This document shows, in pieces, positions 9,468 to 40,094 of a DNA stretch of 64,000 bases. How positions within the stretch are numbered: position 1 is the stretch's first letter; each line of letters opens with the position of its first letter. Position numbers and translations under genes: made by a program. The stretch comes from Sphyrna mokarran. Taxonomy: Eukaryota. The DNA lies in assembly GCA_024679065.1 (NCBI GenBank), contig JAGIQG010000008.1, forward strand, positions 85,746,001-85,810,000, in the 5' to 3' direction. The notes beneath the pieces are model-generated. The model searched no databases. It was not told where the DNA came from and saw nothing but the letters and a program-made list of their open reading frames with translations.

Positions 9468-9888
9468 CTGCAGAAACAAAACACAAGGAAAAGTAGACAA
9501 GGGTCAGTCACAGTGTACCTTGCAATGATGTGTCCAGCGACTCGTGTGATGTCCGGCAACTGAGAGGTTTAAAACGGTTCCTATGAGATGGGAATTAAAC
9601 CGCATTCTTGCATCTGTTTTTTAAAGTACAGACAAAACAGTCTGGAAATCTGCCAGTAAACATTCCTTATATACAAGGAGTATTAATGTTTATATTTTTA
9701 TTTTGGTGGCGTCTATTCACAATAAATCGTGGCAAACAAAACCTTGAAAACACTTTTAGTCGTCAGAGATCAATTGTTCAAATGTTAAAGAAGGAATTGA
9801 GTTAACACTTTGCACTTCATTGACCCTATCCTATTCAATATTGATATTGTGGACGTATCTGTCCAGATATCCATCAGACATTTCTTAC

Positions 9889-10398
9889 CATTCCATCTGA
9901 GCAATTGGATCGCGGGCTGGAGGCGTCTGAGTCCACACTGTATTGATCCATAACTGAGAAGTAGTTCTCGTCCTGCTCTCTCAGGAGGGCTTGCAGGCTC
10001 TCGATGTACCTGATGGCATTTCTCAGAATCTCCACTTTGGGCAGCCTCTGGTTGGGGTTGGTGGACGTGCACCGCTTGAGCGTCTCAAATGCCTCGTTCA
10101 CTTTGCTGAGGCGCCTCCTCTCCCTCATGGTGGCCGCTTTCCTGCGGTCAGCGTTGGTCGTTTTCCTCTTGCAAGCCTTGCAAGCCCAGAGCAAGCAGCG
10201 ACCGGCTTGGTGGTGCCCACTCGGGGCTCGAATGTGCTCGTCCTCGGACGGCCCCTGGTCGGGTTTGAGGAGCCCGACGTGGACTAACCTGGGGTCTAAG
10301 TCCTCGAAAAAGTGGATGTCCGAAGTGGAGAAGCAGGGATCATCGTAGAAGTCATCGGCAGAGGAGAAAGAGCACAGAGAGGTGTCCGTTATCTCCAT
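9889..10398 (-). CDS. myod1: MyoD1 coding exon 1 (N-terminal activation domain, His/Cys region, bHLH)
   Basis: [52 protein letters not shown]...[26 protein letters not shown]|gtaaga. Total CDS 828 nt = 275 aa + stop. Confidence 0.99.
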
Positions 10399-10559
10399 GA
10401 TGGGAGAGAGGCGATCTGGGATCCTAATAAACTTCTCTTTAAAAGGATCTGTCTGTCCCCCTTTATTTTCTCGTTTCCTCTTTGATAGTGTTTTGATTGT
10501 GTTGCCTTTGGCTGTGTCGCTCGTACCGATCGGTACCTGTGCTCAGTGCAATGAAAGTT

Positions 10560-10700
10560 TTGCCCTATTTATTCCCAACTCTGGGGGTTGTGGAGTTGAA
10601 TCCTCGAACGCCCCAAATCTCCCATGAACCAATCAGATAGCTGTGGGGGGCGGCTGCCTTATTCAGGGTCCGGGGTTTCCACCTTCCCCATTGGCCCTGG
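10560..10700 (-). promoter_or_regulatory. myod1 proximal promoter
   Basis: ATAAATA TATA-like box (10572-10566 on -), CCAAT boxes (10629-10633 on +, 10694-10690 on -) and a GC box ggggcgg (~10647-10653), ~170-300 nt upstream of the ATG. Confidence 0.75.
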
Positions 10701-13700
10701 CTCTCTGTGGCTGGGTCACTCAGCCAGTCTGCTTAGTGTTAGACCATTCAACATAAAGCCCCCTCTACAAAAATAAAATACTTTCCGACTTCTCCTTCTG
10801 CCAGAATGACAAGTGCAATTTCCTTGAGCGTTTATTAAAAACAACTTATGTTAACCACTTGCGTGCATCCGTTGATTTTATTTAATGTTTCGAAAGGTTA
10901 AACTCTAACAGTGCTCCATTTCTATTTTAAACATCGCCGGCATGGCTTTGCTCATTTTTTAAAAAACACGTTTTTTTCGCATGTTTCCGTTAAAAGACGC
11001 GAACGAAATGAGCAGTGTTAAAGAGTCCCGGAACTCGGCGTTGTTTCTACATTAACTAACACTTTCAAACGAACTTCAATTAAACAGGGCAACTCCTGTG
11101 CAATCCGTTTCTTCGATGTGAACTGGTGGATGGAGAGGTAAATTATTTTGTGGTTACATCGCCCGTATCTCACGAAGCAATTGCATTTGCTTGAAGTGGA
11201 ATTATTTAGAGTATTACTTTTTAAAAATCTTTTAATCTTGTGGAAGGAGATTATCCTATTATTAAATTAAATCTAGTGTTTACATTTTAATTCTAAAATG
11301 CAGACGCATTGTGTAAAGACTAGAGAACTGTATTTTCCACTTATCTAAAGAATTTGAGATGCTGTTGAACGCTAACATCTATTTTATAACCAGATAGAGA
11401 AAAGAGTGAAAAAAACAGGGTGATTTTGCACTTTTTAATAATCTTTGTAGCCGATGACATGAGGATAGAATAACATCCTCGGTGTCTGGTTCAAAGAGGT
11501 GTATGAAAAGCAGAATGCCGCCTTCCAGAAGCGGTGCCTTCAATCCAAGCGGAGAAATTATTACACCCGTCTCCCCATCACCTCCCATGTCCCAATCCCA
11601 GGTGCAGGATATAAACTGGCAGGTTGTTTGCCAGGTCGCTTTTCCGTTATGTGTAGCAACGTGAAGCCCTTTCCTCGGGATCTCTGCCGCCAGCAACACT
11701 GGAGATTTTGGGTAAATCCGATAGATGGAGTTAACTGTCCAATGACTGATCTGTCCATAATAACAGTCCACCACCGTTCACCAATAAAAGCAGGCGAGTG
11801 CACTCCGCGTGGAATCCCCATAAGGTTTTCCCCTACACTTACGTGTGTGAATAACTATCACTCTCTGAGGGCTAGCTTTTAGTGGCTGGCTGAAATGTAA
11901 ATGCCACGCGCTGTTCTAATGAAACAGTATTTTATTTCTTTAAGACATATCTTCCTTTTGCTCATATAGGGTTGTGTGTCCGAATCCATTTCCCTCTGTT
12001 GCTCTGTCGATGTTTACATGATGCTATGTGCTCGGGTGTACCACGCGCGTTGCCCTTATCCACTGTGTGGAGGAATCGAGTGAAATCCTTGATCTCGTTT
12101 GGCCATGAATCCAATTCTGCTTTTAGTAATCGGCCGCTTTGTGCGGATCTGTTACTCCTTTTTCACTTTCTTGAATTTTACCTGAAGGTGCACATTTTTG
12201 CATTTTCAGTGAAGGACACCCCCCAAACTTGGTAACTGATGTGGGAGAGTGAGCTAGTACAGAAGTCGCCAGCTGTTTAGAACTCAGCAGCAGTGAGAAG
12301 GCAACAGTACAAGAGGAACGTCCCATCCATTCCCACATCACCTCCAAATCCGCTGACTCCAATGCTCTCCTGGATTACTTTTCAGGTTATCCAAAAACCC
12401 TCTTCCTATATCTTTCCCTAGTTCCGTCCTCAACCCCTCATATTTTAATATTCCCCTTTTAATGCATTCACGACATCGCCAGTCTGTAACCTTCTGTAAT
12501 ACAGCCTCTCTGGCCCTCTCCCTTCACCGGCCGTTAGTGGCGCCCGGCCCTCACTCTCCAAAGTTCCTCCACCTCCAACTTCCAGCTGAAGATTTCGTCT
12601 TTTTCCTTCCGATTGTCGGTCACTTCTAACCCCTCCTTCGGTTTGGACCAATTTTCTTAGCGCCCGTGTGAAGGACGTTTTTCTGATATTCATTAAGGAT
12701 TGTCATTATTATCACGCGAACCTGGCAATGGAACAATACCCGACAATGTGAGGCATACAATTACACTCAAACAATCTGCCAGGGCTCCCACTGAATAAAC
12801 AGGAACGTTTGCGAATTTCCACTTGTCTGCCTGACACTTCGTGGGATTATTTTCCTCCCCATGGCTAGCTCCGATATCTTGAATTGTATCTTCCCAAAAG
12901 CCCAGGAAAGAATTTCGACTTCCCAAGATAATGGAGCGATTACCCTCCCGTGTTCACTGTCTCCCCGTCAGAAGTCATCAACCGGCCAACTCAAATTGGC
13001 ACTGCCAGTTTACAACCTCCTGCTGCTACAGGTATTTAATGAGACTTACGCAGCACGTTTGAGAGATTCCTGCAGTAACTTGGGAATGGCCGGGGCTGCG
13101 AGCTGGAATTGTACCTGTGGAGGCAACTCTACACAACTTGTCTTCAGTTATTCATTTTTCGTCAATAACTTAAATAATATGTTTTTAAGAGATATATTGA
13201 TTCTGTCAATGACTGAGGTAGACAACGATAGAATGTTTATGGAAACATTCTGCGAGATGAATTTTAACCCATTACGAGTTACAGATGAACAAGTTGAATG
13301 CACGGCACCTGCCAATTTTAGGACATAAATTAAACCAAGCACTGATTTTCTCAGAGTTTTTATTTGATTCTGGGCACAAACAAGTCTAGGGTATCTCAAC
13401 CATTGTAAAACAGGGAGATGAATTCCACTGATATAAACGCATATATATACAAACCCACCCAGAACAACCCTAGAAACACAATTCATCTCGTTGCTGGCAC
13501 ATGGCGATTGGAGAGGCAGTTTGTGAGCCAGTTCCTCAATACAGTTTATCGAACCAATTGTAAACTCCTCCTTCGATGGAGTGTTAAGCGAGACTTTTAT
13601 AAAGGAGCTATATGAAAATATTTAGAAAATAGCTTTCAAAAAACTCTGTTTTCAGAAAATATATATTGCGATAGAATCGTTCGACTTCTCAATAGGTGGA

Positions 13701-14818
13701 AGAACCATACATGAATTTTAGTGCTAAAATATTTGTAGTGTTGACCGGATGACATTGCAAGGATGCCCGCACTTGGCATTGCTGTTGGTACCTCTGGGGT
13801 ATCAAGAGAAGACAAAGGTCCTGCGGGGAGATGTGAAGCGGTGCAGGGAAGCTGTTAAAGAGTACATTATTCCCTACTGAAACCTTGCTCCAATGCCCCC
13901 CGCCCCCCGCCGTCATTTTAAAATCCCTTCCTGGTTTCTGAAGGGGGAGGCGAATGAGGAAGAGAAAATGAGAGGATCCAGATGTCATCAAAGTTCTTCA
14001 CTACATGCATTAAAAAAACTATTTATCTTAATCCCCTGAGTTGGTACAAATCGAGAACCAGTTTATAGCGTAAAACCGAATATTACCGCAATATCCCTTA
14101 GTTATATAAAATGATTTCACACCTTCTCTAGTAAGCTACCCCACCTGTAGAGTGTATTTAACACTTTTTTTTACCTGTAAGATCCCTGCTCTGAACCGAA
14201 ATGTAATTACTGCAATGGAATAGTTCAAAGCAATGCAGTCCAGCTAAATACACTGCTAAACCTAGCTCAAGAGCAGTTAGCAAACTCGTTTACCAAAGGT
14301 GCAGCCACAGCATTTAACACATCTCGATTGTCAAATTGCCCTAATCTAAAATGACAAAAATGAAAAGCTCAACTTTTGAATTAATGTTTTCCAGATAGAG
14401 TAGGAAGCGACATAAATGCAGTGAGAGATTGGATATATACTGGATACATCAAACATACAGGCTGACAACTACTGGTCCCTTCCAGAGACTACACGCAACC
14501 AAAGCTTGTAGATAATACAGACTTTGTAACTGTCTTGGTTTTGTAATTGTGTGCAGTTGCAGGAATCTGGAAATAAAGACCGATCTCTGATGGTGCGGTT
14601 TCATTGGGATTACCCACATTGCATGTACGGAGAAAGAGGCGTCCCTTTTCTGCAGAGAATCTCTTCAGTGATAGTCCCGCGTTAGGGTATGGGCCATTAT
14701 CGAGGATAAGATTAATTGAAGGAAGATAACATTAACTGATGTACTTGGGTAAAAAGGGATAGGGGCATATATGAAACAAAATCCTGTTCTCGTCTTTAGT
14801 CATTCTTTATAATTAAAT

Positions 14819-14828
14819 CTAAAAATAG
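14819..14828. promoter_or_regulatory. Perfect MEF2 consensus site CTAAAAATAG
   Basis: Exact CTA(A/T)4TAG match ~4.3 kb upstream of the myod1 promoter; function unproven. Confidence 0.3.
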
Positions 14829-15162
14829 TAACTTAGAGTCTTAGTACCGAAATATTTTGAGTGGGTCTTTATCCTGATAGCTCTCTGTGATAATACACTT
14901 CTACCAAAAGTGTGGATTACCTAGGGCCCCAATGTAGCGTGCAGAATTTACAGAGGACAACCTTTAATCTCCGTGATTTATCAATGTTCACATTTAAAAA
15001 TCAAATCTTAAAGAACACTAGAAAACGCTATAAAATGTTTCTTTTAAATCATTAGCTTAGAAGAAGGGTTAATCTCTCTAAAGGCATGAGCTGGATGCAA
15101 TGCAGATAGAAAAGTTGTGATCTTTGGCATTTTATGGGACGTAAGACAAACTGTGACCGTTT

Positions 15163-15462
15163 TCAGGCAGGTGACTTCTGCAACTCTTCCTGCAGCCGGT
15201 CAATGAGGTATTCCCCAAAGCTAACTTGCCCTTCATCTGTACAACCCAGCCGGTTAGCGTTGGTGATCAGGTCGCCGGCTATTTTGATCTGTTGGATTTT
15301 GGGGACGAGTAGACGTTTCCGGATAAAGCTGGTGGTGTGAGGGTCCGTGCAGCTCTTGCCCAGCGCACAGAGTTCTTCCAAGAAGGTGGCCACCGTTTTC
15401 CACTGCTGGATTGTCTGATCCAGTGCTTGGCGAATGTTCTGCACCGACTCGGTCCCGGGTTT
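15163..15462 (-). CDS. Ferritin-like (ferritoid-like) gene, last coding exon (fused equivalent of ferritin exons 3+4)
   Basis: Acceptor tttcctgtttccttgcag|AAA. KPG...WKTV..FLEEL...DPH..SFI....IKIAGDLITN.NRLG...GEYLIDRL aligns with ferritin helices C-E; stop TGA. Confidence 0.92.
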   Translation of the reverse strand, partial: KPGTESVQNIRQALDQTIQQWKTVATFLEELCALGKSCTDPHTTSFIRKRLLVPKIQQIKIAGDLITNANRLGCTDEGQVSFGEYLIDRLQEELQKSPA

Positions 15463-15734
15463 CTGCAAGGAAACAGGAAAAAACAGAAACAAAGTCATGT
15501 AAGGGAGATTAATTTGGCTGCGTGGGATCTTACTGCCGGCCTGTCCTAATTTCGGCAAAGTCAAGGAAGCACACTTCTTGGGGTTTTCCGAGGCATAGCA
15601 TCGGTACAATCCCAAGGCGATATTAACATTGCAATAATTTTAACACTCCAATATATTACCGAGTGCAGAACTGTCGCATTTAGTGCACAAAGGCAGTTTT
15701 CCCTTTAGGTTGTGGACAATATTCATTAATGGGA

Positions 15735-15965
15735 TTATTGCTCACTCCTAATTGCTCTTGAATGGAGTGATCTGCATTGCTGTGGATCCAGTATCATATG
15801 TAGGCCAGATCAGGATTTCCTTCCCTATTACTGAACCAGATGGGTTTTTTTAATGACAATGGTTTCACACTCATCATTATCCATTTAATTCTAGCTTCTA
15901 GTGGATTCAAATTTCACCATTGCTCTGCTGGGATTCAAATCTAAATCCCCAAAGCATTATCTGGA
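15735..15965 (-). mobile_element. tRNA-headed SINE, family B (decayed)
   Basis: gatttccttccct...tgaaccagatgggtttt...attcaaatttcacc...gggattcaaa; reverse complement of the 35458 copy. Confidence 0.6.
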
Positions 15966-16675
15966 ATCTCCAATCTTTCCTCAACCCGCCCATTCCAGGT
16001 AGTAGTCTGGTAAAACTTTTCTGAACTGCTTCTCATGCATTTACATCCTTCCTTAAATAAGGAGGAATACTGCAAATGGTTCTCCAGATGTGATCTCATC
16101 AATGCTTTGTATAATTGTCATTTTTTTGACATCTTTTGAACCTTTTGGACCACTGTTTGCAACTCAGTATTAGTAAATAGCTGAGTAAAATAACCATTGT
16201 AGTTTCTCTTTACATGCATTGTACTTGCATGTAAAGAGAAGTTTTTGTGCTTTTATCAAACTTATGGTTACTTGTACTTTAAAAATAAAGTCATCAACTT
16301 CTAGGATATTATGTACATAATATATAAATATTTTATATACATATAAAATTTCTCAGTATTGAATAAGACAGCAATTTCAGGTGGGATATGGAACCACAAA
16401 ATCATTCTCTTTCTTTTCCTTGCCTTATTTTTGTCATTTATTTTTGTATTTGATCCATGGCCAGCAAACAGATCTCGAATCCTCCTCCCACCAATTTACT
16501 GACATGATAACATAAGGGTGAAAAACAATTCATTGCTCTACGTACTGAAGGAAAAAAATACATCTAATATTGGTTGATGACTTAGAACAAGTGAAGGACC
16601 ACAATCTGACTATAACTAATGTTTTTTTTATGAATGACCTCAGATTCACTGCTTGTTCTTTGTAGCATACCATTT

Positions 16676-16980
16676 ATAGAACCACAGAACACCGTTTGGT
16701 CCATCGAATCCACACCAACCACAATCTCACCCAAACCCTATCTCTATTACCTCATTTGTTTATCCTAGCTAGTCCCCCTGACTCTAACAGGCAATTTAGA
16801 ATGGCCAATCCACCTAACCCGCATATCTTTGAACTGTGGGAGGAAACCGGAACACCCGGTGGAAACCCACGCAGATATGGGGAAAACGTGAAAATTCCAT
16901 ACAAACAGTAACCCAAACAGGGAATTGAATCCAGATCCCTAGTGCTGTGAGACAGCAGTGTTAACCACTGTGCTACCCTT
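16676..16980 (-). mobile_element. HE1-like V-SINE
   Basis: ggcaatttagaatggccaatccacctaacc...tgtgggaggaaaccggaacaccc...cagcagtgttaaccactgtgc. Confidence 0.85.
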
Positions 16981-17201
16981 ATTTCAAGATTACTAAAGAT
17001 TCTTCAGCTACACAGAGTATTGAAAGCATTGAACTGGATGATACTGTGATAATCAAATGTATCAGAAAAATTACATTCCATGTTGGGCAACCTATATCGG
17101 TTCTGGCCACTTTGGGATGAATGCATTCTTCTTTATGTGAACTGCTATGGTACTGGCAGATCTACATGATCTGCCAGCTCGCCTTTATGCTGGCCAAATA
17201 C

Positions 17202-17348
17202 CTTAATGTCTTTGGCACAGTAGTGACCCCCTCGCTCCTTCTGGTACTCCAGTAAGATCTCAGCGTTCTGTTCCTCCTCTTCTGCTGCTTGCCGGAAATA
17301 GCTCGAAACTCTGGGCAAAGCCACATCATTTTGTTCGAAGATCTCCGC
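17202..17348 (-). CDS. Ferritin-like (ferritoid-like) gene, coding exon 2
   Basis: Acceptor tttctccttcaatgccag|GCG and donor ATTAAG|gtattt. 147 nt, the canonical length of vertebrate ferritin exon 2. AEIFEQNDVALPRVSSYFRQAAEEEEQNAEILLEYQKERGGHYCAKDIK aligns to helix B and the BC loop. Confidence 0.93.
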
Positions 17349-17537
17349 CTGGCATTGAAGGAGAAAACAGCAAACACACTGAGCGGCAATCACCAAACAA
17401 GTCAATTGGCCACCAGCTACAGGCCAAGTCTGGACTCCAGCTGTGGCACCATTATTTCACTGACAGTGATTTTATAATATTGACAGACCCAAAGTATATA
17501 GAAAATCTAAACTTCTGGAGATCAATTAGCTGTTAAT

Positions 17538-17640
17538 AAAGAAGGACTGGCATTTATGTAGCACCTTTCAGGACTATTGGATGTCTCAAAGCGTCTTACA
17601 ACCGATGAGGTGTTTTTGAAGTATATCATTGTTGTGATAT
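17538..17640 (-). mobile_element. Deu-type (AmnSINE1/SacSINE1-like) SINE 3' fragment
   Basis: aaagaaggactggcatttatgtagcacctttca...gtctcaaagcgtcttacaacc. Confidence 0.55.
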
Positions 17641-19774
17641 ACTAAGTGCAAAATATAAATATTGGAAAATACAAAAAGCTTAGCTCCAAGAACAAAAATA
17701 CACAATTCTAAAGGACTTGTTTTTCCTGTCAGTTTTTTGGAGCTTATGAATACGGATTCGCCAATGGAGTTTAGGAGTGAGGACTGGGTGGGTCTTGCCG
17801 GAGGAAGAGATAATTTCAGCACTGACCTAGATCCAGTGGCTCAGCGGGTGATTCATTTACAGGAATGGTAACAATTCTGCCTCTCTACAGCACAGCCGAA
17901 AATCCAGTGGCAATTGTAGCTGTTTTCTTTCACCCCCATACACTGTTATGATGAATTCAAAATTGAAAGGCAGTTGAAGCGGAAATTTTTACCTTTTTAT
18001 CTTGTTCACTTCAGGCGGATTTAAACTTGTTCTTAACGCCTACATAAGGTATTTCACACTATAGGGCATTTCACATTCTCATAGCGTTGCCCAATGACTA
18101 ACTTCAGAGTACGTACACAGACAGCACTTGGGAAGAAGCGGGCACTTAATGTTAACAATGTGTTTGTGTGCAACATATGATTATTGTGTGATTGTTCCCA
18201 GAGTAAAATCCTTTGAAGAATCCAAAATTACACCATGGCTAAGGTTTGAATATCTGAAGTGACTCGGACCGGCAGGGAGCTGTGCAGAAATGAACAGTGA
18301 AGAATTGTAAGTATCGCCACTGTCTGAAGCATGCAGGACGAGAGGAAGTGATCATCTAATCTCTTCAGATCCTGTAGGACATGAAGGAAAAGAGGGATCA
18401 ACAGCCCAGGAATAATTTGCACCCTCATCTACTCAGTCATAGCCAGAGCACTATTGCCTCTGTGATGCCCAAAGAATCTATTCTTGGTCCATTTATTATT
18501 GGAAATGGCCATGAACAGGCACTGAATTAGATTGTACAAATATTACCTGCCATTCATTTGCTTACGTGTGGATGTTCTTCAAGTCCAAGTATATGGTAAT
18601 GTGGGGTGCATCAGTTTTATAAATACTGTCAAATGATTAGTGAACAGCTCCACTCCTGATTCTATGATCGAGAGGCCCCACATGAAATTGCGGAAGCCGT
18701 TTAGGTTCAGGACACTTCCTGAAGAAGTGGTATTTTGGGATGCAATATTGGGTTTTCAAAACCATACAATTTTCTTGTGCTAATTATGACACTAGCCACT
18801 ACAGGCATATTGATCTCAATTTTGCCTTGCTGCGATATTCAATTAAGTGCTGCCTCAATGGTTTCCTCTCTGGCATTCAGGTCCTCTGTCCACATCTGAA
18901 TCAATGTTGTGCTGAGGTTTTATTTCCTGGCAGAATGCAAGGTGACCATCAGTGAGTATGTTCTTGGTGACTAAATGTCACCTGGTCACCCCATTCATGG
19001 CTGCTTTCATTTCTTTGCTGCTGATTGGGTGGAGGTTGATAGAACTGAAATAAGTTGATTTGATTTGTATTTTTGGGATGATCTAAATGACTCTCCACTT
19101 AGTCAGGCAGATGCCTATGTTATAGGTACCTGAGAAAGCATTTGGTTCTGTTGTCTTGCCATTTGGATGCTTCCTTTGTGGATATATTTGAACTCTGGGC
19201 TTAAAGTGATATACATATATTTTTGAAACTACGTATTACATACATTCTCTCCTCCCTACAAAGAAAAATGTCACAGTGGATCTGCTAGGTACAAAGAAAA
19301 AGGGAATTTTTGTATTTATATAGCAATGTATGACATGCACAACAATTATTTTGAAGGTGGTAATTATTGTTATATAGGCTGGTGCAGGAGCCATTTTGTA
19401 CAAGGTCAAAGAAATGCCAATGAAGCAAAAGACCTGTAATCTGTTTCTAGTGGTGCTAATTGAGGAATAAGTATTATCCAAAAGAAATCTGTTCTCTTTG
19501 ACTTCTACCCTAGAATCATTTATCCTTCTCCAAACCCCCAGAACAGCCAGACAGGATTTTGGTTTAACCCTGTGTTGAAAGAATGAAACTTCTAAAAATA
19601 TTAACAGCATAAATTAAACCTCACTATGTAGAAGCTATCCCAAGTTATAATGCAGGGATTGAAATGAAGAAAAGAATAATGAATTAAAAGCTTGGTTGAA
19701 AAGATGGGTCTTTAGATGGTCAAAAGTGGAAGGGATTTAGGGTATTAGGGCTGAGATGTTGGTACAAAGAAAAG

Positions 19775-20008
19775 TGTAATAAGTCTTCAGAGGCAATAGT
19801 CCCTTCACCAAAATCCCTTTATTCATAATTCCAACAGCAGTATACAGAGTGCTATCAGTCAGCAGTCTACCTTCGAGAGCATCAGAGTACTAACACTCCC
19901 AGTTAAATGCAAGGAAAAGACTCCCTGATTGGCTCATCAATTGACTCCTTAACTAGAGAGTTCATATTCCAATAGGCCAATCTCAATGGCCTGATTGAAG
20001 TCATTACA
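19775..20008 (-). mobile_element. Solo LTR (234 bp) inserted in an L2 remnant
   Basis: TGTAAT...ATTACA inverted termini, flanks aaaag/gaaag (5-bp TSD, 1 mismatch), AATAAA on the minus strand near its 3' end. Confidence 0.7.
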
Positions 20009-20280
20009 GAAAGTAAGGGTGATTAAAATATCAGTCAAAGAATAGATCAATGCAACAAGGAATACATGGCTGAAGGAGATTTCAGAGATCAAGTGAAGAA
20101 AAGATTGAAGACTTTAATCTCTAAACATTTAGGGCACTGGAAGCAGTATGTGCAAGCAAGGGCTGAGGTAAAAACTGGGCCAAAATGCAAGATGGAATAC
20201 AGGCCTTCCCCAGTCTCTATAGCCTTCCTGACCACACCTTCTTACCCTCAACTCTAGCTCCAGCCTCACACTTTAAGATT

Positions 20281-20509
20281 AAGCAAATTACTGCAGATGC
20301 TGGAGTCTGAAATAAAAAACAGAAAATGCTGGATAATTGTAGCAGGCCTGACAGAATCTTTGGAAAGAATAGCACTAAGGTTTCAAGTCTGGATGACCCT
20401 TCATTAGCTCTGCCAAAGAGTTATCCAACTTGAAACCTTAGTGTTATTCTCTCTCCACAGATGCTGTCAAACTTTGTGAGATTATCCAGCATTTTCTGTC
20501 TTTGTCTCA
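20281..20509. mobile_element. Palindromic (inverted dimer) Penelope-like terminal fragment
   Basis: acagaaaatgctggataat ... attatccagcattttctgt arms; same family at 48221 and 63551. Confidence 0.65.
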
Positions 20510-20519
20510 CAATACTTTT

Positions 20520-21225
20520 AGTTTGCTTCTCATCTCCAAGCCTATGCTCACCAAACTCAATATTTCCATAAAGCCCTAATGTTTTGACTCCCAGCTTATT
20601 TAATATGACCATTCATTTATCTACACTGCCTTGACCCAACCATACTGGTCATAACTCCTCCTTTCTGGACCTCTGCATATGTTTAAATTGATGGTCTACT
20701 TCGCTTTGTGTTCAGTTCCATCTTGAGTTGAATTTCAAATTTTTCATTTGGCCTGTCCAGGTTGCTAACACCCACCTCTGAAATGTCTGTTCTCATCCTA
20801 TCAAGTCCTCATTTCTGTTAAACTGCTCATCCCTGTCTTACTATTTTCTTACTCAACTTTTCTAATAACTTCCTGAATAGGCTTCGGAACTTCTATGCTT
20901 CTTAAATTCCGACTCATTCAATAATTCTACTGCTTGATTCCTATCCCACCTGAAGTTCCTTTCACCAGCAGGTCCTGTCCTTGATAAGCCCCACTGGCTC
21001 CATTCTTAAATACATTAATTTCAAAATCCTCCCCGTGCCTATACATCTCTCTGTATACTTGCTGTTTCTGTCAGGCCTACCTCATTGTTTGTTTCCTCTA
21101 TTTGACTCTGGTTTCAGCTGTTTCCCCGTCAATATACATTACATCAGTGAAGTACTTTCATTCATCACCATGTTTTTGCCTCCAGCTTGTCCCTTTCCCT
21201 CCTTCAAATTCACTTTAAAACCCAC
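20520..21225 (+). mobile_element. Decayed L2 LINE fragment
   Basis: Pyrimidine-rich L2-like 3' region (cactggctcc...atttcaaaatcctc...ccttcaaattcactttaaaacccacct). Confidence 0.45.
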
Positions 21226-21230
21226 CTTTC

Positions 21231-21529
21231 GGGGCAGCACAGTGGTTAACTCCAGGTACCTGGCTTGAGTTTTTGTCTGTGCAGAGTTTGCACATTCTCC
21301 CTGTGTCAGCTTGTGTTTACTCTGGGTGCTCTAGTTTTCTCCCACAGTCCAAAAATGTGTGGATTAGGTGGATTGGCCATGTTAAATTGCCCCTTAGTGT
21401 CAGGAGGACCAGATAGGGCAAATGCATGGGGTTATGGGGATTGGGCCTGGGTGGGATTGTGATTGATGCTGATTCGATGGGTAGAATGGCTTCCTTCTGC
21501 ACTGTGGGATTCTATAATTCCATGATTCT
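21231..21529 (+). mobile_element. HE1-like V-SINE with CR1-derived tail
   Basis: ggggcagcacagtggtta head, V-domain, gatgggtagaatggcttccttctgcactgt tail. Confidence 0.85.
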
Positions 21530-22829
21530 TTTTGGCAGCATATTTTATAACTTCTCCAATTTCTCTCCGATTCCTGCTTAGCTCTGACTCCCAATTATCA
21601 AGAAATGTGAGTTTCTGCTGTGTTTGACACTGTTACATTAATGTTGTAACAGTGGAAATCAGTCAGTCACGGTAATGATACAGTCTGTTAGATCTCCTGT
21701 AGAGCCTCAGCAACATAGGGTGCTACTTTTTAGTTCACTGTTGACGTAGTGACGTTGAGATAATCAATTGTAGTGACATACAGAGCAAAAGTCTTCACAG
21801 AAAACTATCAATAATTCTTGATATCCATTCCTAATCTTGCCCTTAACTTTCCTCGCATTCTGAAGGTCCTAATGCTTGCTACAGTGTAGTTTGATTATCT
21901 TAACAGCATTTCAATACCTGCCCAAGTCACTATTCTTCATTTTGTTGAACCAAGGACAGTCTACACACTACTTAATTAGCACAATCTCACTTCAGAAATA
22001 CAAGAGAAGCTTTCAGCTAGAACACCAAGATAACGATCTGAAGTGGGGTAAATGGCCCTTCTCTCACAAATGCCCAATTGGAATACTACAACTGATACAC
22101 AGCACAGAACAACAACTTGTATTTATATGGTGCCTTTAATGTATTAAAAAAATCCAGAGGCACTTCACAGGGCATAATAAATCAAAATGTTAGACACCAA
22201 GCTACTAAAGGAGATATTAGCACAGGTGACCCCAAAAGTTTGGTCAAAGAGGCTTTATGATATCATAAAGAAAAAAAAGGTCTTCTTCAATGTATGGTTT
22301 AATACTGAAATATTCATTGCGTTTATCAATTAGAAGATATTAGGAGGATATATGTATATATAATACATATGCTATAAATGTATAAATGTATGGATGTAAG
22401 AATACATGGAATAGTCATTGTCTTTTAAACTAATTACTGTATAATATTATGTTACACTGGAAGAGACAAATTTCCGCATGGACAATTAAGTTATATTCTG
22501 TCCTAATTTAAATGAATATGCAGTGATACAATGTCAAAAATCATACTTCAGTCACACACCACTGGCACTGTATGCTACAAATCTCAAGATGTGCCTAGTC
22601 ACATTTTTAAACTCAATTGCTTCTGTCTCCCTATAAATTAAAAATAAGCAAACCTTCTCATAACTAAGTACCATGTGATGAATAAGTCAATTTAACTTAA
22701 ATCTGCCAACTAACTATTATCATATACATCTACCAGCCTCTGGATAATATCTGTAGTCAAACATTAACTTTTGAATCAGCTATGATTTTTTTTCTCCCAA
22801 AATTAGTACTTATGTACACACCAGAGAAA

Positions 22830-23050
22830 ATCTTAATTTCCTGGAACTTGCTGCCCATGAATGAAGCTGAGATGATTAATGATTTCAAAAGGAAACTGGA
22901 GTGGACACTTGCAGGGAAAATTAAAACAAAACTAGCAGGGCAATGGAGATAAAGTAAGAGAATGGGACAGACTGAATCGTTCCTCAGAGTTGACAGAGAC
23001 TCACTGGGCTGAATGGCCTCCTTTTCTGTGTAAATGGCTTTATGATTCAC
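22830..23050 (+). mobile_element. CR1 3' tail fragment
   Basis: tggaacttgctgccc...ttcaaaaggaaactgga...gggctgaatggcctccttttctgtg. Confidence 0.6.
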
Positions 23051-24377
23051 AAAGTTAGACTCTTTATGTTTGACGATTCTTTGATAAACTCCTCCCCTGA
23101 GCACAATAATTGCTGGGTGCTGCATTTTTCAAATGAAATTCTGGCCAATCCTGTACTGACGATCCAGAGTGCTGCAGAAGATACATTTTCCAACCACCTG
23201 CAATTATTTTCAATTCAGCGCACCTATCACCCCTCCAATGAAAACCTCTCTTTGTTTTCAGCAGGGTGATTGAAGTTCAAGTTAAAGTGTACATTGAGCC
23301 AAGGGCCTCTTTTGTTTTATTACAATCCAATTTTGAATAAAAGTAATCACAGAACTTAACAAATGAAAAATGCTGACAACACTTCATCTCATTGAGGTGT
23401 GTTTATACTGTAGCTAAGTCTGAGACTGGTCACTCCAGCATACTTTGGAGCCAAGTAGCATCTTTCACATGTGGTTCGCCATCCCCCCCGCCCCAGTTCC
23501 CCCAACCCATCCCCGCACAAACATCCCTACACCCTTGGCTCTTATTTGAATTTCTTTCACTGCAAGGATGCTTTGAGAGGACATGAGAGAGGATTCAACT
23601 TCTCTAAAATAATGAATAGTTTTATAGTATGCAGGAAGCTTAAAAGACTATCCTAAGCACTTTGTAAACCCCGATTTTAGCATTGAGATTACATCTCAAA
23701 CAGAGGTCAAGCTTCTCATATCAATCTCCCGTGGAATAATGCTATTAAAATTTCAAGAAAGATGCTTGCTTGATCTAGAAGCTTAATAAATAAAACTAAT
23801 TTGGGAAAGGGCTGTTATACTGCTGCCTAGGCATTTTCAAAACTGCGCAGAATACAACTTTGTTCATTATTTATCCATTTTGGTTTAAAAATGAAATTAG
23901 CTTGTTTTCAAACACTCGCTGAAATTAAAAAAAAGTCCACATTTTTTAATTGGCTTTGCAATAAAAATGTTTTGCTTCACTGGGGTCAGGTCACTTGAGA
24001 TCCCCCCCCCCACCCAACCACTAGATTTATTCCTAGTCCTGGCAGTCTGGTTGTAAAGGACTCTTTCTGGTCCTTCTCAGCAGAAACTCCCTCAAACTGC
24101 AATTCCGTGCATCAGGGTACTGTATTGACCAGGTCCCATTGCAGGGCATTGCCCACGGTCTGGCAGAGATGACTCCAGTTACATGGATTAAAACAGCAGT
24201 TTAGTACTGAGTAATCAGGCAAAGTCTGGAGGGAGGTAATAAGACACCTCTCCCGACACTCCTGGATGTTGATGAGGGGGAGGCGGATCCGCTACCTCCC
24301 GCACTTTGCCCAACTCCATCGCAACTTCTTCCCCTTGTCTCAGGAGCTCAGCTACAGCGCATTTGAAGCCACCTTAC

Positions 24378-24545
24378 CAGAGCCTGGAAGCGGTAGGAAA
24401 CCTGGTAGAAGAGGGTGATGAGCCCGCACACCGCCTCCTCCACACTCGCATGGTAATTCTGCTTCACCCGGGTCCCCTGCACCGGCTGATGAAAGGAGCA
24501 AATGGGAAGGCAGGTTTTCTGTCGCTTCCACTTCGGCTCTGCCAT
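24378..24545 (-). CDS. Ferritin-like (ferritoid-like) gene, coding exon 1 with basic N-terminal extension
   Basis: MAEPKWKRQKTCLPICSFHQPVQGT-RVKQNYHASVEEAVCGLITLFYQVSYRFQAL|gtaagg. RVKQNYH matches ferritin QVRQNYH, and the phase-0 donor is at the ferritin intron-1 position. ATG context CAAATGG. Confidence 0.9.
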
Positions 24546-25865: not shown

Positions 25866-28229
25866 CGAATGGACACCTCTGGAATGACAGTAGAATGTAC
25901 ACCACCGGAGTGACAGTAGAAAAGACGCTACTGGAGTGACAGTAGAATGGACATCTCCAGAGTGACAGTAGAATGGACATGACCACAGTGACAATAGAGT
26001 GGACACAGCTAGAGTGACAGTAGAATGGACATGGTCACAGTGACAGTAGAATGGACACGGCCACAGTGACAGTAGAATGGACACGGGCAGAGTGACAGTA
26101 GAATGGACACATCCAGAGTGACAGTAGAATGGACACGGGCAGAGTGACAGTAGAATGGACACGGGCAGAGTGACAGTAGAATGGACTCCTCCAGAGTGGC
26201 AGTAGAATGGACATGGCCACAGTGACAGTAGAATGGACACAGCTAGAGTGACAATAGAGTTGTCACCACCAGAGTGACAGTAGAATGGACACCACCAGAG
26301 TGACATTAGAATTGACACTGCCAGAGTGGCAGTAGAATGGACATGGCCAGAGTGAAAGTAGAATGGACACAGCTAGAGTGACAGTGGGATGACACCACCA
26401 GAGTGACAGTAGATTGGACACGGCCAGAGTGATAGTAGAATGGACACGGTCCGAGTGACAGTAGAATGAACACCTCCAGAGTGACAATAGAATGGACATG
26501 GCCAGAGTGACAGTAGAATTGACACCTCCAGAGTGACAGTAGAATGGACACAGCTAGAGTGACAGTAGAATGGACATCTCCAGAGTGACAATAGAATGGA
26601 CACAGTCCGAGTGACAGTAGAATGGACACCTCCAGAGTGACAGTAGAATGGACACCTCCAAAGTGACAATAGAATGGACATGATCCGAGTGACAGTAGAA
26701 TGGACGCAGTTAGAGTGACAGTATAATGGACACCTCCAGAGTGACAGTAGAATGGACACCTCTAGAATGACAATAGAATGGACATGATCCGAGTGACAGT
26801 AGAATGGATGCAGTTAGAGTGACAGTAGAATGAACACCTCCAGAGTGACAGTAGAATGGACACCTCCAGAGTGACAATAGAATGGACATGATCCGAGTGA
26901 CAGTAGAATGGACACAGTTAGAGTGACAGTAGAATGAACACCTCCAGAGTGACAGTAGAATGGACATGGCCAGAGTGATAGTAGAATGGACACCACCAGA
27001 GTGACAGTAGAATGGACACGGTCCGAGTGACAGTAGAATGGACACAGCTAGAGTGACAGTAGAATTGACACCTCCAGAGTGACAGTAGAATGGACACCAC
27101 CAGAGTGACAGTAGAATGGACACAGCTAGAGTGACAGTAGAATTGACACCTCCAGAGTGACAGTAGAATGGACACCACCAGAGTGACAGTAGAATGGACA
27201 CAGCTAGAGTGACAGTAGAATGGACACAGCTAGAGTGACAGTAGAATGGACACCTCCAGAGTGACAATAGAATGGACACCACCAGAGTGACAGTAGAATG
27301 GACACCTCCAGATTGACAGTAGAATTGACACCTCCAGAGTGACAGTAGAATGGACATAGCTAGAGTGACAGTAGAATGGACATCTCCAGAGTGACAGTAG
27401 AATGGACACGGTCCGAGTGACAGTAGAATGGACATCTCCAGAGTGACAGTAGAATGGACACGGTCCGAGTGACAGTAGAATGGACACAGCTAGAGTGACA
27501 GTAGAATTGACACCTCCAGAATGACAGTAGAATGGACACCTCCAGAGTGACAGTAGAATGGACATGGCCAGAGTGATAGTAGAATGGACACCACCAGAGT
27601 GACAGTAGAATGGACACAGCTAGAGTGACAGTAGAATGGACACCTCCAGAGTGACAGTAGAATGGACATGGCCAGAGTGACAGTAGAAAGGACATGGCCA
27701 GAGTGACAGTAGAATGGACACCTCCAGAGTGACAGTAGAATGGACACCTCCAAAGTGACAGTAGAATTGACACCTCCAAAGTGACAGTAGAATTGACACC
27801 TCCAGAGTGACAGTAGAATGGACACCTCCAGAGTGACAGTAGAATGGATACCTCCAGAGTGACAGTAGAATGGACACCTCCAGAGTGATAGTAGAATGGA
27901 CACCTCCAGAGTGATAGTAGAATGGACACCTCCAGAGTGACAGTAGAATGGACACCTCCAGAGTGACAGTAGAATGGATACCTCCAGAGTGACAGTAGAA
28001 TGGACACCTCCAGAGTGATAGTAGAATGGACACCTCCAGAGTGACAGTAGAATGGATACCTCCAGAGTGACAGTAGAATGGACACCTCCAGAGTGATAGT
28101 AGAATGGACACCTCCAGAGTGACAGTAGAATGGACACAGCTAGAGTGACAGTAGAATGGACACCTCCAGAGTGACAGTAGAATGGACATCTCCAGAGTGA
28201 CAGTAGAATGGATCCATCGAGAGTGGACA
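25866..28229. repeat. 26-bp minisatellite array 1 (~90 units; consensus gagtgacagtagaatggaca-cctcca)
   Basis: Direct tandem repetition visible; constant ~20-nt core with a variable ~6-nt segment. Confidence 0.98.
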
Positions 28230-31200
28230 AAGAACAAAGAACACACAGCACAGGAAACAGGCCCTTCGGCCCAACGAGCCCACATCACCATTTTAACATT
28301 CCCACTTCCACCCATGACCCTTGTCTATGTTTACGGAAATCTGCATTGGAACCAAATTGGGGAGACAATTTAGGGACAATTTGTTTCACCAATCAGCCTA
28401 AGAGCACATCTTTGCGGTGTGGGAAGAAATCGGAGCACCCGGAGAAAACCCTCGCAAGCATGGGGAGAATGTGCAAACTCCCACAGATACCGGTTCAAAT
28501 CCTATATCTGCACAGCAACAGTGATAGTCACTGAGTTGTCGTGTTGCCCATCAACTGGTCCAGTTTAAGCGTACACTAACGACATGAAGCAATAGGCTAC
28601 TCTCGAAAAAATCCAAGAGCAGTCCTTCCACGACCCATTGCGTGTATGCCCCTTGTTGGACAACAAGGCAGACCGAAGTACCTGTAGGATAAAAGAGAAA
28701 TACATCAACAATAAGCACAACTTATGCAATTTTCAGAACGTCCCAAGGATCATGATCCCTATTTAAATCAGCCTACTATATCCCTCCATCCCTATTCCAC
28801 TCATGTGCCTATCTAAGTATCTCTTAAATAACTCCAGCGTGCCTGCCTCTACCACCTTAATTGGCAGTGTGTTCCATACCCCTACAACCCTGTGTGTGAA
28901 AACCTCCCTCTAACATCCAAATTATACCCTACCTCCCTTATCCTAAGCCTGTGGCTCCTCGTCATATTTGATTCCAATCCAGGAAAAAGCTTACCACTGT
29001 TTAGTCTATCTATACCCTTCATAATCTTGTACACCTCTATTAGATCTCCTCTCAGTCTCTGTCTTTCTAAAGAAAGCAGACCCAATTTACCTAACATTTC
29101 CTCGTAACCCAGTCCTTTCAAACCGGGCAGCATCCTCGTAAACCTCCTCTGCACTCTCTCCAGGGTCTCTACATCCTTCCGGTAGTAAGGCGACCAGAAC
29201 TGGATGCAGTATTCCAAATGAGGTCTAACTAACGTTTTATACAACTGCAACATTAAAGGCCAGCTCTTGTACTCTATATCCTTTCCTATAAAGGCTAGCA
29301 TACCATAAGCTTTCTTCACAATCTTTTCCACCTGTTCTATCACCTTCAAAGCTTGTGCACCTGCACCTCCAGGTCCCTCTGTATTTCTGTACTCTTAATA
29401 GGTCTACCCTTTATCATATAACTCTCCCCTACATTATTCCTCCTGAAATGCATCACCTCGCATTTATCAGGATTGAATTCCATCTGCCATACATCTGCCC
29501 AATTTACAAGCCTATCTATGTCCTGTTGTATTGCCCGACACTACTCCTCACTATCCACAAGCCCAGCCATCTTTGTGTGATCAGCAAACTTGCTCCCTCT
29601 TCCAAGTCATTTATATAAATGACAAATAGAAGAGTTCCCAGTACTGAGCCCTGTGGCACACCACTAGTGACCGACCTCCAGATAGAAAAACACCCTTCCA
29701 CTACTACTCTCTATTTCCTATTACCAAGCCAGTTACTTATCCATCTAGATACCTGTCCTTGTATCCCATTAGCCTTGAGCTTTTCAACTAACCATCCATG
29801 AGGGACTTTGTCAAACGCCTTACTGAAATCCATATAGACAACATCAACAGTTCGTCCTTCGTCAACTGTTTTTGTCACGTCCTCAAAAAATTCTACCAGA
29901 TTCATAAGGTATGACATCCCCTTAACAAAGCCATGCTGCGTATCCCTAATCAGATCGCAATGCTCTAAGTGCATATATATCTTATCTCTAAGAATCTCCT
30001 CCAACAGCTTCCCTGTCACTGACGTTAAACTCACTGGCCTATAATTTCCAGGGTTATCCCTACTACCCTTTTTAAATAACATTCACTATTCTCCAGTCCT
30101 CCAGGCTCTCACTTGTGTCCAAAGAAGAGACAAAGATTTGCGTCAGAGGCCCAACAATTTCACCTCGCATATTCCTAAGAAGCTTGGAATAAATGCCATC
30201 AGGCTCTGGAGATTTTATCAGTTTTAATGCTACCTAGAAGATTCAACACTTCCTCCCTCGTAATGGATATTTCCCTCAACTGGTCTACAGCTCCCTCCAA
30301 GACAGTACCAGTCAACAAGCCCCTCTCTTTCATGAATACTGACACAAAGTATTCATTCAGGATTTCCCCCATTCCTACGAGACCGACTTTTCCTGTAACC
30401 ACCTTTTTATTCCTAACATAGGAGTAAAAAACCTTTGGATTTTCCTTAATCCAGTCCGCCAAAACCATTTCATGCCCCCTTTTTGCCCTTCTAACTCCCC
30501 GTTTGAGCTCCCTCCTACTCTATTCCTCCAATGCTCTCTCCGTTCCCAGTTGCTTTGACCTAACATACGCCTCTCTTTTCTTCCTAACCAAGTCCTCTAT
30601 TTCCCTAATAATCCATGGCTCTCTAATCCTGCCTTTCCCATCATTCCTCTTAGCCGGCACATATATTTCCTGCAACTTTATCAGTTTTCCCTTGAAAGAA
30701 TCCCACATGCCAAACGTGGACTTCCCATCGAACAAACTTTCCCAATCAGTTTCCGTAAGTTCCTGCCTAATCTGACTGTAGTTAGCCTTCCCCCAATTTA
30801 GCACCCTCTCATTAGGGCAACAAGCATCCTTTTCCATTTGTATCCTAAAGAAGACAGAATTGTGGTCAGTGTTAGCCACATGTTCCCCTACTGCAACTTC
30901 AACCACCTGCTCTGGCTCATTACTCAGAACAAAATCCAATATAGCCCCTTCTCTAGTCAGGCTAGCTACATACTGCTCCAATAATTCCTCCAATAGTCAT
31001 CCGAACCCGCAGCTCTATGTACCTTCCAGTCCACCCCAGGGAGATTGAAATCTCCCACTATAACAACCCTATTCTTTCTGCGCCTATGCAGAATGTTTTT
31101 ACATATGCCTTCTTCCACTGTCCGCGGGCTGTTGAGTGGCCTATAATACACCACTAGCATAGTAATTGCCCCTTTCCTATTCCTCAACTCCACCCTCAGC

Positions 31201-31572
31201 AACTCAATTCCTAACTCTATATTGTCTTCCCTCTGCACCACTGTGATGCTCTCCCTAATTAACAATGCCACTCCCCCACCTATTCTCGACCCTCCTCTGT
31301 CATACCTGAAACATTTATACCCCAGGAATATTCAGCTGCCGGTGCTCCCCTTCCTTTAACCATGCCTCTGTTACTGCAACCACATCTAAGTTCCTTGCGA
31401 ACGTTAAGGCCCAAGTTCATCTGTTTTTCCTGTTATGCTCCTCGCATTAAAACAGACGCAGTCCAAATCTCCAAGTCCACTCAGAACCTCTTTCTCCTTG
31501 GTGAATACGCTCTCATTCAAACTTACTCTATCACCCATCTCGCTCCCAATCCCACTATCTACTGAGCTATCG
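28227..31572 (-). mobile_element. CR1 LINE, near-complete but frameshifted ORF2 (APE endonuclease + RT) with V-domain-containing 3' UTR
   Basis: ORF pieces: CFNARSI (EN start), [75 protein letters not shown]. Confidence 0.93.
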
Positions 31573-32075
31573 GTGACAGTAGAATGGGCAGCTCCAGAAT
31601 GACAGTAGAATGGACAAGGCCAAAGTGACAGTAGAACGGACAAATCTAGAGTGACAGTAGAATGGACAAGGCCAAAGTGACAATAGAATGGGTAAGGCCA
31701 AAGTGACAGTAGAATGGAAATGGCCAGAGTCACAGTAGAATGGACACATCCACAGTGACAGTAGAATGGACGAGGCCAAAGTGACAGTAGAATGGACATG
31801 GCCAGAATGACAGTAGAATGGACATGTCCGGAGTGACAGTAGAATGGACAAGGCCAAAGTGACAGTAGAATGGACATAGCCAGAGTGACAGTAAAATGGA
31901 CATATCCACAGTGACAGTAGAATGGACACGGCCAGAGTGACAGTAGAATGGACAAGGCCAAAGTGACAGTAGAATGGACATGGCCAGAGTGACATTAGAA
32001 TGGACTCCTCCAGAGTGACAGTAGAATGGACATGGCCAGAGTGACAGTGGGATGGACACGGGCAGAGTGACAGTA
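31573..32075. repeat. 26-bp minisatellite array 2 (~19 units, same family as array 1)
   Basis: Same gtgacagtagaatggaca core; dominant variants aggccaa and tggccag. Confidence 0.97.
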
Positions 32076-39050: not shown

Positions 39051-39900
39051 TAGAACATAGAACATAGAACATTACAGCACAGAACAGGCCCTTTGGCCTT
39101 CGATGTTGTGCCGACTAATATAAAAAGCAATGCTCCTCCAAACTAAACCATTCCCTTCTCTTCCATATACTTATCAACTAACCTCTTAAACGCCACCAAA
39201 CTTGGCGCATCTACAACTGCTGCAGGCAGGGCATTCCACTCCCGAACCACCCTTTGGGTAAAGAACCTACCTCTGATATCCGTCCTATAACTATCACCCC
39301 TTAATTTAAAGCTGTGTCCCCTCGTGCTAGCTTTCTCCATCCTAGGAAAAAGGCTATCACTGTCCACCCTATCTAAACCTCTAATCATCTTATATGTTTC
39401 GATTAGGTCCCCTCTTAGCCGCCTCCTTTCTAACGAAAACAACCTCAAATCCCTCAGCCTCTCTTCATAAGACCTGCCCTCCATACCAGGCAACATCCTG
39501 GTAAACCTCCTCTGTACCCTCTCCAATGCCTCCACATCTTTCTTATAATGTGGGGACCAGAACTGCACACAATACTCCAAGTGCGGCCGCACTAGAGTTT
39601 TGTACAGTTGCAACATGACGTTGCGGCTCCGAAATTCAATCCCCCTACCAATAAAAGCTAAGACTCCATATGCCTTCTTAACAACCTTCTCGACTTGACT
39701 GCCTACTTTCAGGGATCTATGCACATACACACCAAGATCCCTCTGTTCATCAACACTATTAAGAATCCTACCATTAGCCCTATACTCTACACATTTATTA
39801 TTCCTGCTATAGTGCATTACCTCACACTTTTCTACATTAAACTCCATTTGCCACCTCTCGGCCCAGCTCTGCAACTTGTCCAAGTCTCTCTGCAAACTGT
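39051..39900 (-). mobile_element. Young 5'-truncated CR1 LINE (uninterrupted 250-aa RT C-terminal ORF)
   Basis: ORF 39143-39895 has no stops; (ttctatg)n tail at ~39051-39070. Confidence 0.95.
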
Positions 39901-40094
39901 AACACCAAACTGAGCAGGCAGGCCTCAGCCATTGAGTGGAGTAGGGAATGGGGTGAGATTGTAAAAGCTGGTGTTGGGGGATTGGAAATCTAAAGCTGGA
40001 TGAGGGAGATTAGAAAGATTGGAGCCCAAAAAGATCAGGTGGAGAGGTCAGAATATTCTATGCAAAGAATGTGGAGGCATTAGAGAATTGCAGA

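Follow-up and report, generated by a model that had tools for sequence, protein, structure and literature searches.

A ferritin-like gene was identified on the minus strand of a 64,000-nucleotide (nt) stretch of DNA from the shark Sphyrna mokarran (GenBank assembly GCA_024679065.1, contig JAGIQG010000008.1, positions 85,746,001 to 85,810,000 of the forward strand), the whole of which is hereafter called the window. The gene lies just upstream of myod1 and is best explained as belonging to a separate jawed-vertebrate ferritin lineage, distinct from the H, M and L chains; the comparisons below give good support to its being an orthologue of avian ferritoid. In the chicken eye, ferritoid is known to carry the iron-storage protein ferritin into nuclei. 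The literature divides vertebrate ferritins into H, M/L and mitochondrial types and treats ferritoid as a bird oddity (PMC4117605, PMC13534657). Birds are described there as possessing ferritoid and no L chain, the UniProt label for ferritoid being FTL, and avian ferritoid as carrying an SV40-type nuclear localisation signal (NLS) and forming complexes with H chains (PMC13534657).

Gene structure

Three minus-strand coding exons of 168, 147 and 300 nt join in frame into 615 nt, encoding a protein of 204 amino acids (aa) with one terminal stop. The coding part of exon 1 (24378..24545, 168 nt, codons 1-56) comprises the N-terminal arm and helix A and ends at the donor CTG/GTAAG; exon 2 (17202..17348, 147 nt, codons 57-105) covers helix B and the BC loop and gives a Pfam Ferritin match (E 4e-5); and the coding part of exon 3 (15163..15462, 300 nt, codons 106-204 plus TGA) covers helices C, D and E, with neither a third intron nor a C-terminal tail. 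Intron 1 (17349..24377, 7029 nt) and intron 2 (15463..17201, 1739 nt) are both in phase 0, with GT donors and pyrimidine-rich AG acceptors. A stop codon lies in frame 5' of the ATG, and a candidate polyadenylation signal, ATTAAA (14963..14968, minus strand), is found 195 nt past the stop codon. As for base composition, the GC content is 50-58% in the exons vs. 38-40% in the introns.

An annotated protein of Scyliorhinus torazame is identical to the product at 186 of 204 positions, without gaps, and the same three exons were matched by tblastn with coelacanth, carp, turtle, lizard and bird relatives. At the level of sequence, the gene is real: the in-frame splice to a 204-aa ferritin-fold protein claimed in the first-pass annotation of this DNA is borne out by the GT-AG borders, the intron phase, the S. 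torazame match and the fold described below. The number of coding exons is three, vs. four exons and three introns in vertebrate ferritin genes (PMC4117605). No 5' iron-responsive element (IRE) was found in Rfam scans of the locus, the transcription start of the gene not being located.

Family range and sampling

A search with exon 3 yielded 11 full-length relatives, and the profile built from these matched 82 proteins. Fifty-seven named, full-length and non-redundant members were kept, the other 25 being unnamed records, isoforms, fragments and one canonical marsupial L chain, which served as a control. The members are distributed among cartilaginous fishes (10), ray-finned fishes (23), coelacanth, amphibians (6), turtles (5), crocodile (1), squamates (6) and birds (5). 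Their profile scores range from 222 to 413 bits, while no canonical chain in the set of 82 scored above 108. Against solved chains, a family profile scores nearly equally for M (136 bits), H (132) and L (131).

No named mammalian or cyclostome member was present among the 82 profile matches, an absence that is provisional as the search was word-based. Among 150 matches of a representative search, listed without names, all full-length ones above 200 bits were already named members; the unnamed matches may include cyclostome or divergent mammalian members. An Atlas search returned generic ferritin clusters only.

In the databases, the members are called light chain, oocyte isoform ("ferritin light chain, oocyte isoform-like"), middle or heavy subunit, and the bird members "FTL"; the fish, amphibian and reptile relatives are mislabelled as ordinary ferritin light chains. 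These proteins are thus already public, and the novelty lies in their recognition as the ferritoid lineage. No account of ferritoid outside birds was found in the literature searched, which leaves out most subscription papers. The first-pass annotation had noted that ferritoid is usually discussed as avian; its range proves wider, with bony fishes, coelacanth, amphibians and reptiles included. Given the well-supported orthology, both the gene and its NLS motif must be at least as old as the ancestor of jawed vertebrates.

Relationship to avian ferritoid

In all sequence comparisons, five named bird "FTL/FRIL" proteins stand in for chicken ferritoid. The window protein is 45-47% identical to these five vs. 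35-37% to two mammalian L chains, to which the bird proteins themselves are 35-39% identical. Twenty-eight diagnostic sites were then defined from 30 amphibian, coelacanth and ray-finned members vs. 12 L chains (chosen from the best 120 of 474 matches, all mammalian L among those listed), sharks and sauropsids being left out of the definition. At these sites, the family state occurs 19 times and the L state 5 times in the window protein, and 19-22 and 4-5 times, respectively, in the five birds. A tree built without an H/M outgroup, from 24 sequences of the family and 8 L chains, splits the two sets with 100/100 support by a branch of 1.76 and recovers chondrichthyan, ray-finned and bird groups. 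A match from a phage collection was considered as a distant outgroup; being single, unannotated and weak (23.6%), it was not used.

The position of the gene is also comparable. The neighbouring gene in the window encodes a myogenic basic helix-loop-helix protein (Pfam Basic, HLH and Myf5), with a first coding exon region at 9874..10398 on the minus strand and its ATG at 10398; we take it to be myod1 from its MyoD-type motifs. The distance from the ferritoid stop codon to the myod1 ATG is 4.77 kb. In chicken, FTL (ENSGALG00000028696, chr5:12,387,716-12,391,494) lies between USH1C and MYOD1 (12,395,624-12,398,842), 4.13 kb from the latter (PMC8130382, Additional file 7, where strand is not given). 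A synteny check in chicken had been proposed with the original annotation, and FTL adjoins MYOD1 there as in the shark.

The proposed identity as a ferritoid orthologue therefore holds well, since the window protein is closer to the bird proteins than to L chains and shares with them the NLS arm and cysteines described below and the position next to MYOD1, and since avian FTL is ferritoid (PMC13534657).

N-terminal arm, fold and iron-site residues

The N-terminal extension is 22 aa long relative to frog M ferritin, somewhat shorter than the approximately 25 aa first claimed, and it does contain the claimed SV40-like signal: PKWKRQK (24516..24536), a monopartite NLS predicted from its motif, with the core KRQK at residues 7-10. 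Apart from KRQK, the window protein has no K(K/R)x(K/R) match, and such a match fell within the first 22 aa in 1.8% of 10,000 shuffles. At this location, the motif is present in 56 of the 57 named members vs. none of the 12 mammalian L chains; the single exception is the crocodile, whose gene model has no N-terminus. The core is KRPR in the bird proteins and KRQK in the shark. Inside the motif, the Trp at codon 6 (24528-24530) is common only to S. torazame, most other cartilaginous fishes having Gly.

The AlphaFold2 model of the S. torazame protein has a predicted local distance difference test (pLDDT) score of 81.7 and matches solved ferritins with a Z of 21.6 and a root-mean-square deviation of 1.8; the window protein, as modelled through this close relative, has a ferritin-like fold. 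The core aligns without gaps over about 155 aa to bullfrog M ferritin (PDB 1mfr), with an offset of 22, and identity to M/H chains is 32-37%. Helix E and the whole ferritin core are conserved and superpose on cage-forming ferritins, with a 3-aa insertion before helix E relative to M/H chains. In the PDB, M and L chains give the best matches by sequence; the search of solved structures with the family profile turned up no member of the ferritoid family.

Concerning the ferroxidase centre, the six ligand positions taken from PMC4117605 and transferred via frog M correspond to F46, E80, E81, N84, W126 and K160, so that two of six ligands, both Glu, are kept. The ligands E27, H65 and E107 are replaced in all 57 members (no Glu at 46 or 126, no His at 84), and Gln occurs at position 160 in one of the 57. 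W126 is replaced by Leu in spiny-rayed teleosts. The acidic pair of the 3-fold channel, which we take to be D131 and E134 in H numbering, is S150 and R153 in the window protein; Asp150 or Glu153 is found in 0/57 members, vs. acidic residues in 12/12 L chains. Since ferroxidase ligands and acidic iron-entry residues are replaced throughout the family, the window protein is probably a non-catalytic subunit, judging by these substitutions.

Several cysteines are nearly or fully invariant. The arm carries a C16-x2-H19 motif (24489..24500) of candidate metal or disulfide ligands, C16 being present in 56/57 members and H19 in 54/57; two arm cysteines had been pointed out initially, of which C16 is family-wide and C12 is not. 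C40 (24426..24428) is present in 57/57 members vs. Asn in 12/12 L chains and corresponds to N21 of the outer face of the human H chain, and C100 (17217..17219), also in 57/57, corresponds to F81 in the external BC loop. In the human H chain, N21 and F81 both belong to the residues of the outer surface that contact transferrin receptor 1 (PMC6408514). In the S. torazame model, residues 11-20 have a pLDDT of 76, between flanking blocks of 46 and 58, and the arm probably docks through C16/H19 onto C40/C100 of the outer face, by way of a zinc site or disulfides; these four family-specific residues may thereby clasp the NLS arm. A complex prediction with two S. torazame copies and zinc, run with no alignment used, scored 0.02, with no contacts given, and speaks neither for nor against such a clasp. 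Another cysteine, C179, is present in 50/57 members and lost in all six squamates.

Proposed role and alternatives

We consider it moderately likely, by analogy with chicken, that the shark ferritoid orthologue serves as a non-catalytic subunit alongside H chains, its outer NLS arm bringing ferritin into nuclei. Such an adaptor would form ferritin shells or sub-shells together with catalytic H chains, and its basic arm would be displayed outside the shell, open to importin-alpha, with C16/H19 docked on C40/C100; iron-sequestering ferritin would thus enter the nucleus and keep oxidative DNA damage by iron in check, the effect reported for the chicken cornea. Assembly, import, tissue and protection are all extrapolated from the chicken system.

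Several points weigh against this proposal, or against the orthology beneath it. A C-terminal tail of 38-77 aa is present in 17/17 sauropsids, and all 40 non-sauropsids end 2-7 aa past position 198; in chicken, phosphorylation of the tail region is reportedly needed for ferritin binding and transport (compare Beazley 2009, cited in PMC10052036). The net charge is -1 in the window protein vs. +5 to +9 in the five birds, and it differs between birds and shark even without the tail; the net charge of avian FTL is also described as peaking at +7 (PMC13534657). The synteny comparison rests on one other species, chicken. Finally, an approximately unbiased (AU) test on the tree without H/M outgroup does not reject a clade of birds plus mammalian L chains (p 0.113); the root cannot be placed in such a tree, and its freedom accounts for this outcome.

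As for the tail, a hidden tail exon was considered and rejected, bird, turtle and lizard tails having no match at the shark locus, and the simplest reading is that the bird/reptile tail is a later sauropsid gain. In a duck model it is predicted to be disordered (pLDDT <50 over 238-268). By descent, the window gene is taken to be a ferritoid orthologue in a tail-less variant, to which the role of ferritin importer is extended by analogy. The first-pass annotation went further and placed a dedicated nuclear-ferritin import system in the jawed-vertebrate ancestor: the age of the gene and NLS motif stands, but the evidence does not reach as far as the system, the shark protein having neither the sauropsid tail nor a positive charge.

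The tail and charge differences, together with invariant cysteines that suggest a conserved chemistry beyond the needs of transport, speak for an orthologue that in its ancestral form, without the tail, does a job of its own in the nucleus (homo-oligomer, zinc or redox buffer), the ferrying of H-ferritin having come only with the sauropsid tail. The ferritin core is conserved in full, with helix E, and superposes on cage-forming ferritins, which does not sit well with such a history, and disorder, as predicted for the bird tail, is to be expected of a regulatory addition and not of a surface for assembly; we hold this account to be possible, though on the unlikely side. It is very improbable, in our view, that the protein is a divergent L/M-type iron-storage subunit with an incidental basic motif. 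The automatic names, the M and L chains as best PDB matches and the AU result agree with that view, but the low identity to L chains, the acidic 3-fold-channel residues and the NLS motif, both of which separate the 12 L chains from the family, the three exons instead of four and the lack of an IRE in the Rfam scans all speak against it.

A muscle action or co-regulation with myod1, in which the 4-5 kb position would reflect shared enhancers and the eye role a bird specialisation, also appears improbable, if slightly less so. The similar spacing in shark and chicken and the candidate myogenic E-box and MEF2-like matches between both genes are in line with it; yet the sole reported function is in the corneal epithelium, and the whole USH1C-MYOD1-KCNC1 block is conserved, so that adjacency needs no functional link.

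Returning to the nuclear adaptor, a bolder and rather unlikely extension would make ferritoid an ancestral fourth ferritin type: a catalytically dead NLS adaptor whose arm is clasped by a C16/H19/C40/C100 zinc/disulfide site on what is the transferrin-receptor-1 surface of H chains, this clasp serving, in epithelia exposed to ultraviolet light or oxidants, as a redox switch on the import of ferritin into the nucleus, with a tail gained in sauropsids and the gene lost in mammals. Were this so, mammalian nuclear ferritin would have to enter by another route.

If the lineage is as proposed, ferritoid is ancient and widespread but goes by the names "light chain" or "heavy subunit", a mislabelling that skews what surveys show of the evolution and expression of ferritins, and fish or frog knockouts could test the nuclear DNA-protection role genetically. 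A role of ferritoid has been proposed in the human corneal endothelium (bioRxiv 10.64898/2026.08.08.743691), which is to be set against the lack of a named mammalian member among the 82 matches.

Neighbourhood and repeats

Between the two genes (10400-15160), candidate myogenic E-box matches are located at 11599, 12270, 12583, 13306 and 14142, and candidate MEF2-like matches at 11256, 14807 and 14819. Mammalian MYOD1 has enhancers about 5 and 20 kb upstream, an interval that holds the ferritoid gene in the shark. No otog exon was found among the 75 minus-strand open reading frames (ORFs) of at least 60 aa at 33.5-64 kb of the window, and ferritin is unmentioned in the main text, as far as accessible, of a study of myod synteny (PMC2215776).

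Two inverted copies (75% complementary) of a 216-nt repeat resembling a short interspersed nuclear element, at 16701-16916 and 21265-21480, are found one per intron and flank exon 2. Two related 26-bp tandem repeat arrays at 25867-28212 (90 copies) and 31573-32075 (19 copies), the first of which begins 1.3 kb upstream of the ATG, yield spurious Cys/His-rich ORFs. Broken ORFs are located at 28880-31330, 39143-40009 and 54360-56525; they are presumably remnants of long interspersed nuclear elements (CR1/L2-type), and Pfam gave no match on 39146-40009.

Comparison with known systems

The "atypical" invertebrate ferritins are likewise predicted not to bind iron and mostly have no IRE, but an NLS arm is not described in the accessible part of that report (PMC8395497). 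With the mammalian L chain, the window protein shares the database name and the lack of a ferroxidase centre; the substitutions are different, however, the L chain keeps an acidic 3-fold channel and has no NLS arm, and a long branch separates the two. The vertebrate M chain (bullfrog) and the H chain have the same fold, and the 147-nt exon 2 and the first two intron positions presumably match those of FTH1, whereas the shark protein differs by its replaced ferroxidase and 3-fold acidic residues, its N-terminal arm, the helix-E insertion, the three exons and the absence of a detected IRE. The closest system is chicken ferritoid, reportedly treated by Millholland 2003 and Nurminskaya 2009: although the shark protein lacks the C-terminal tail, some 70 aa long, and is negatively rather than positively charged, both have a ferritin-like core, an N-terminal SV40-type NLS, C16/H19/C40/C100 (the sequence features being read from the five bird proteins) and a place next to MYOD1.

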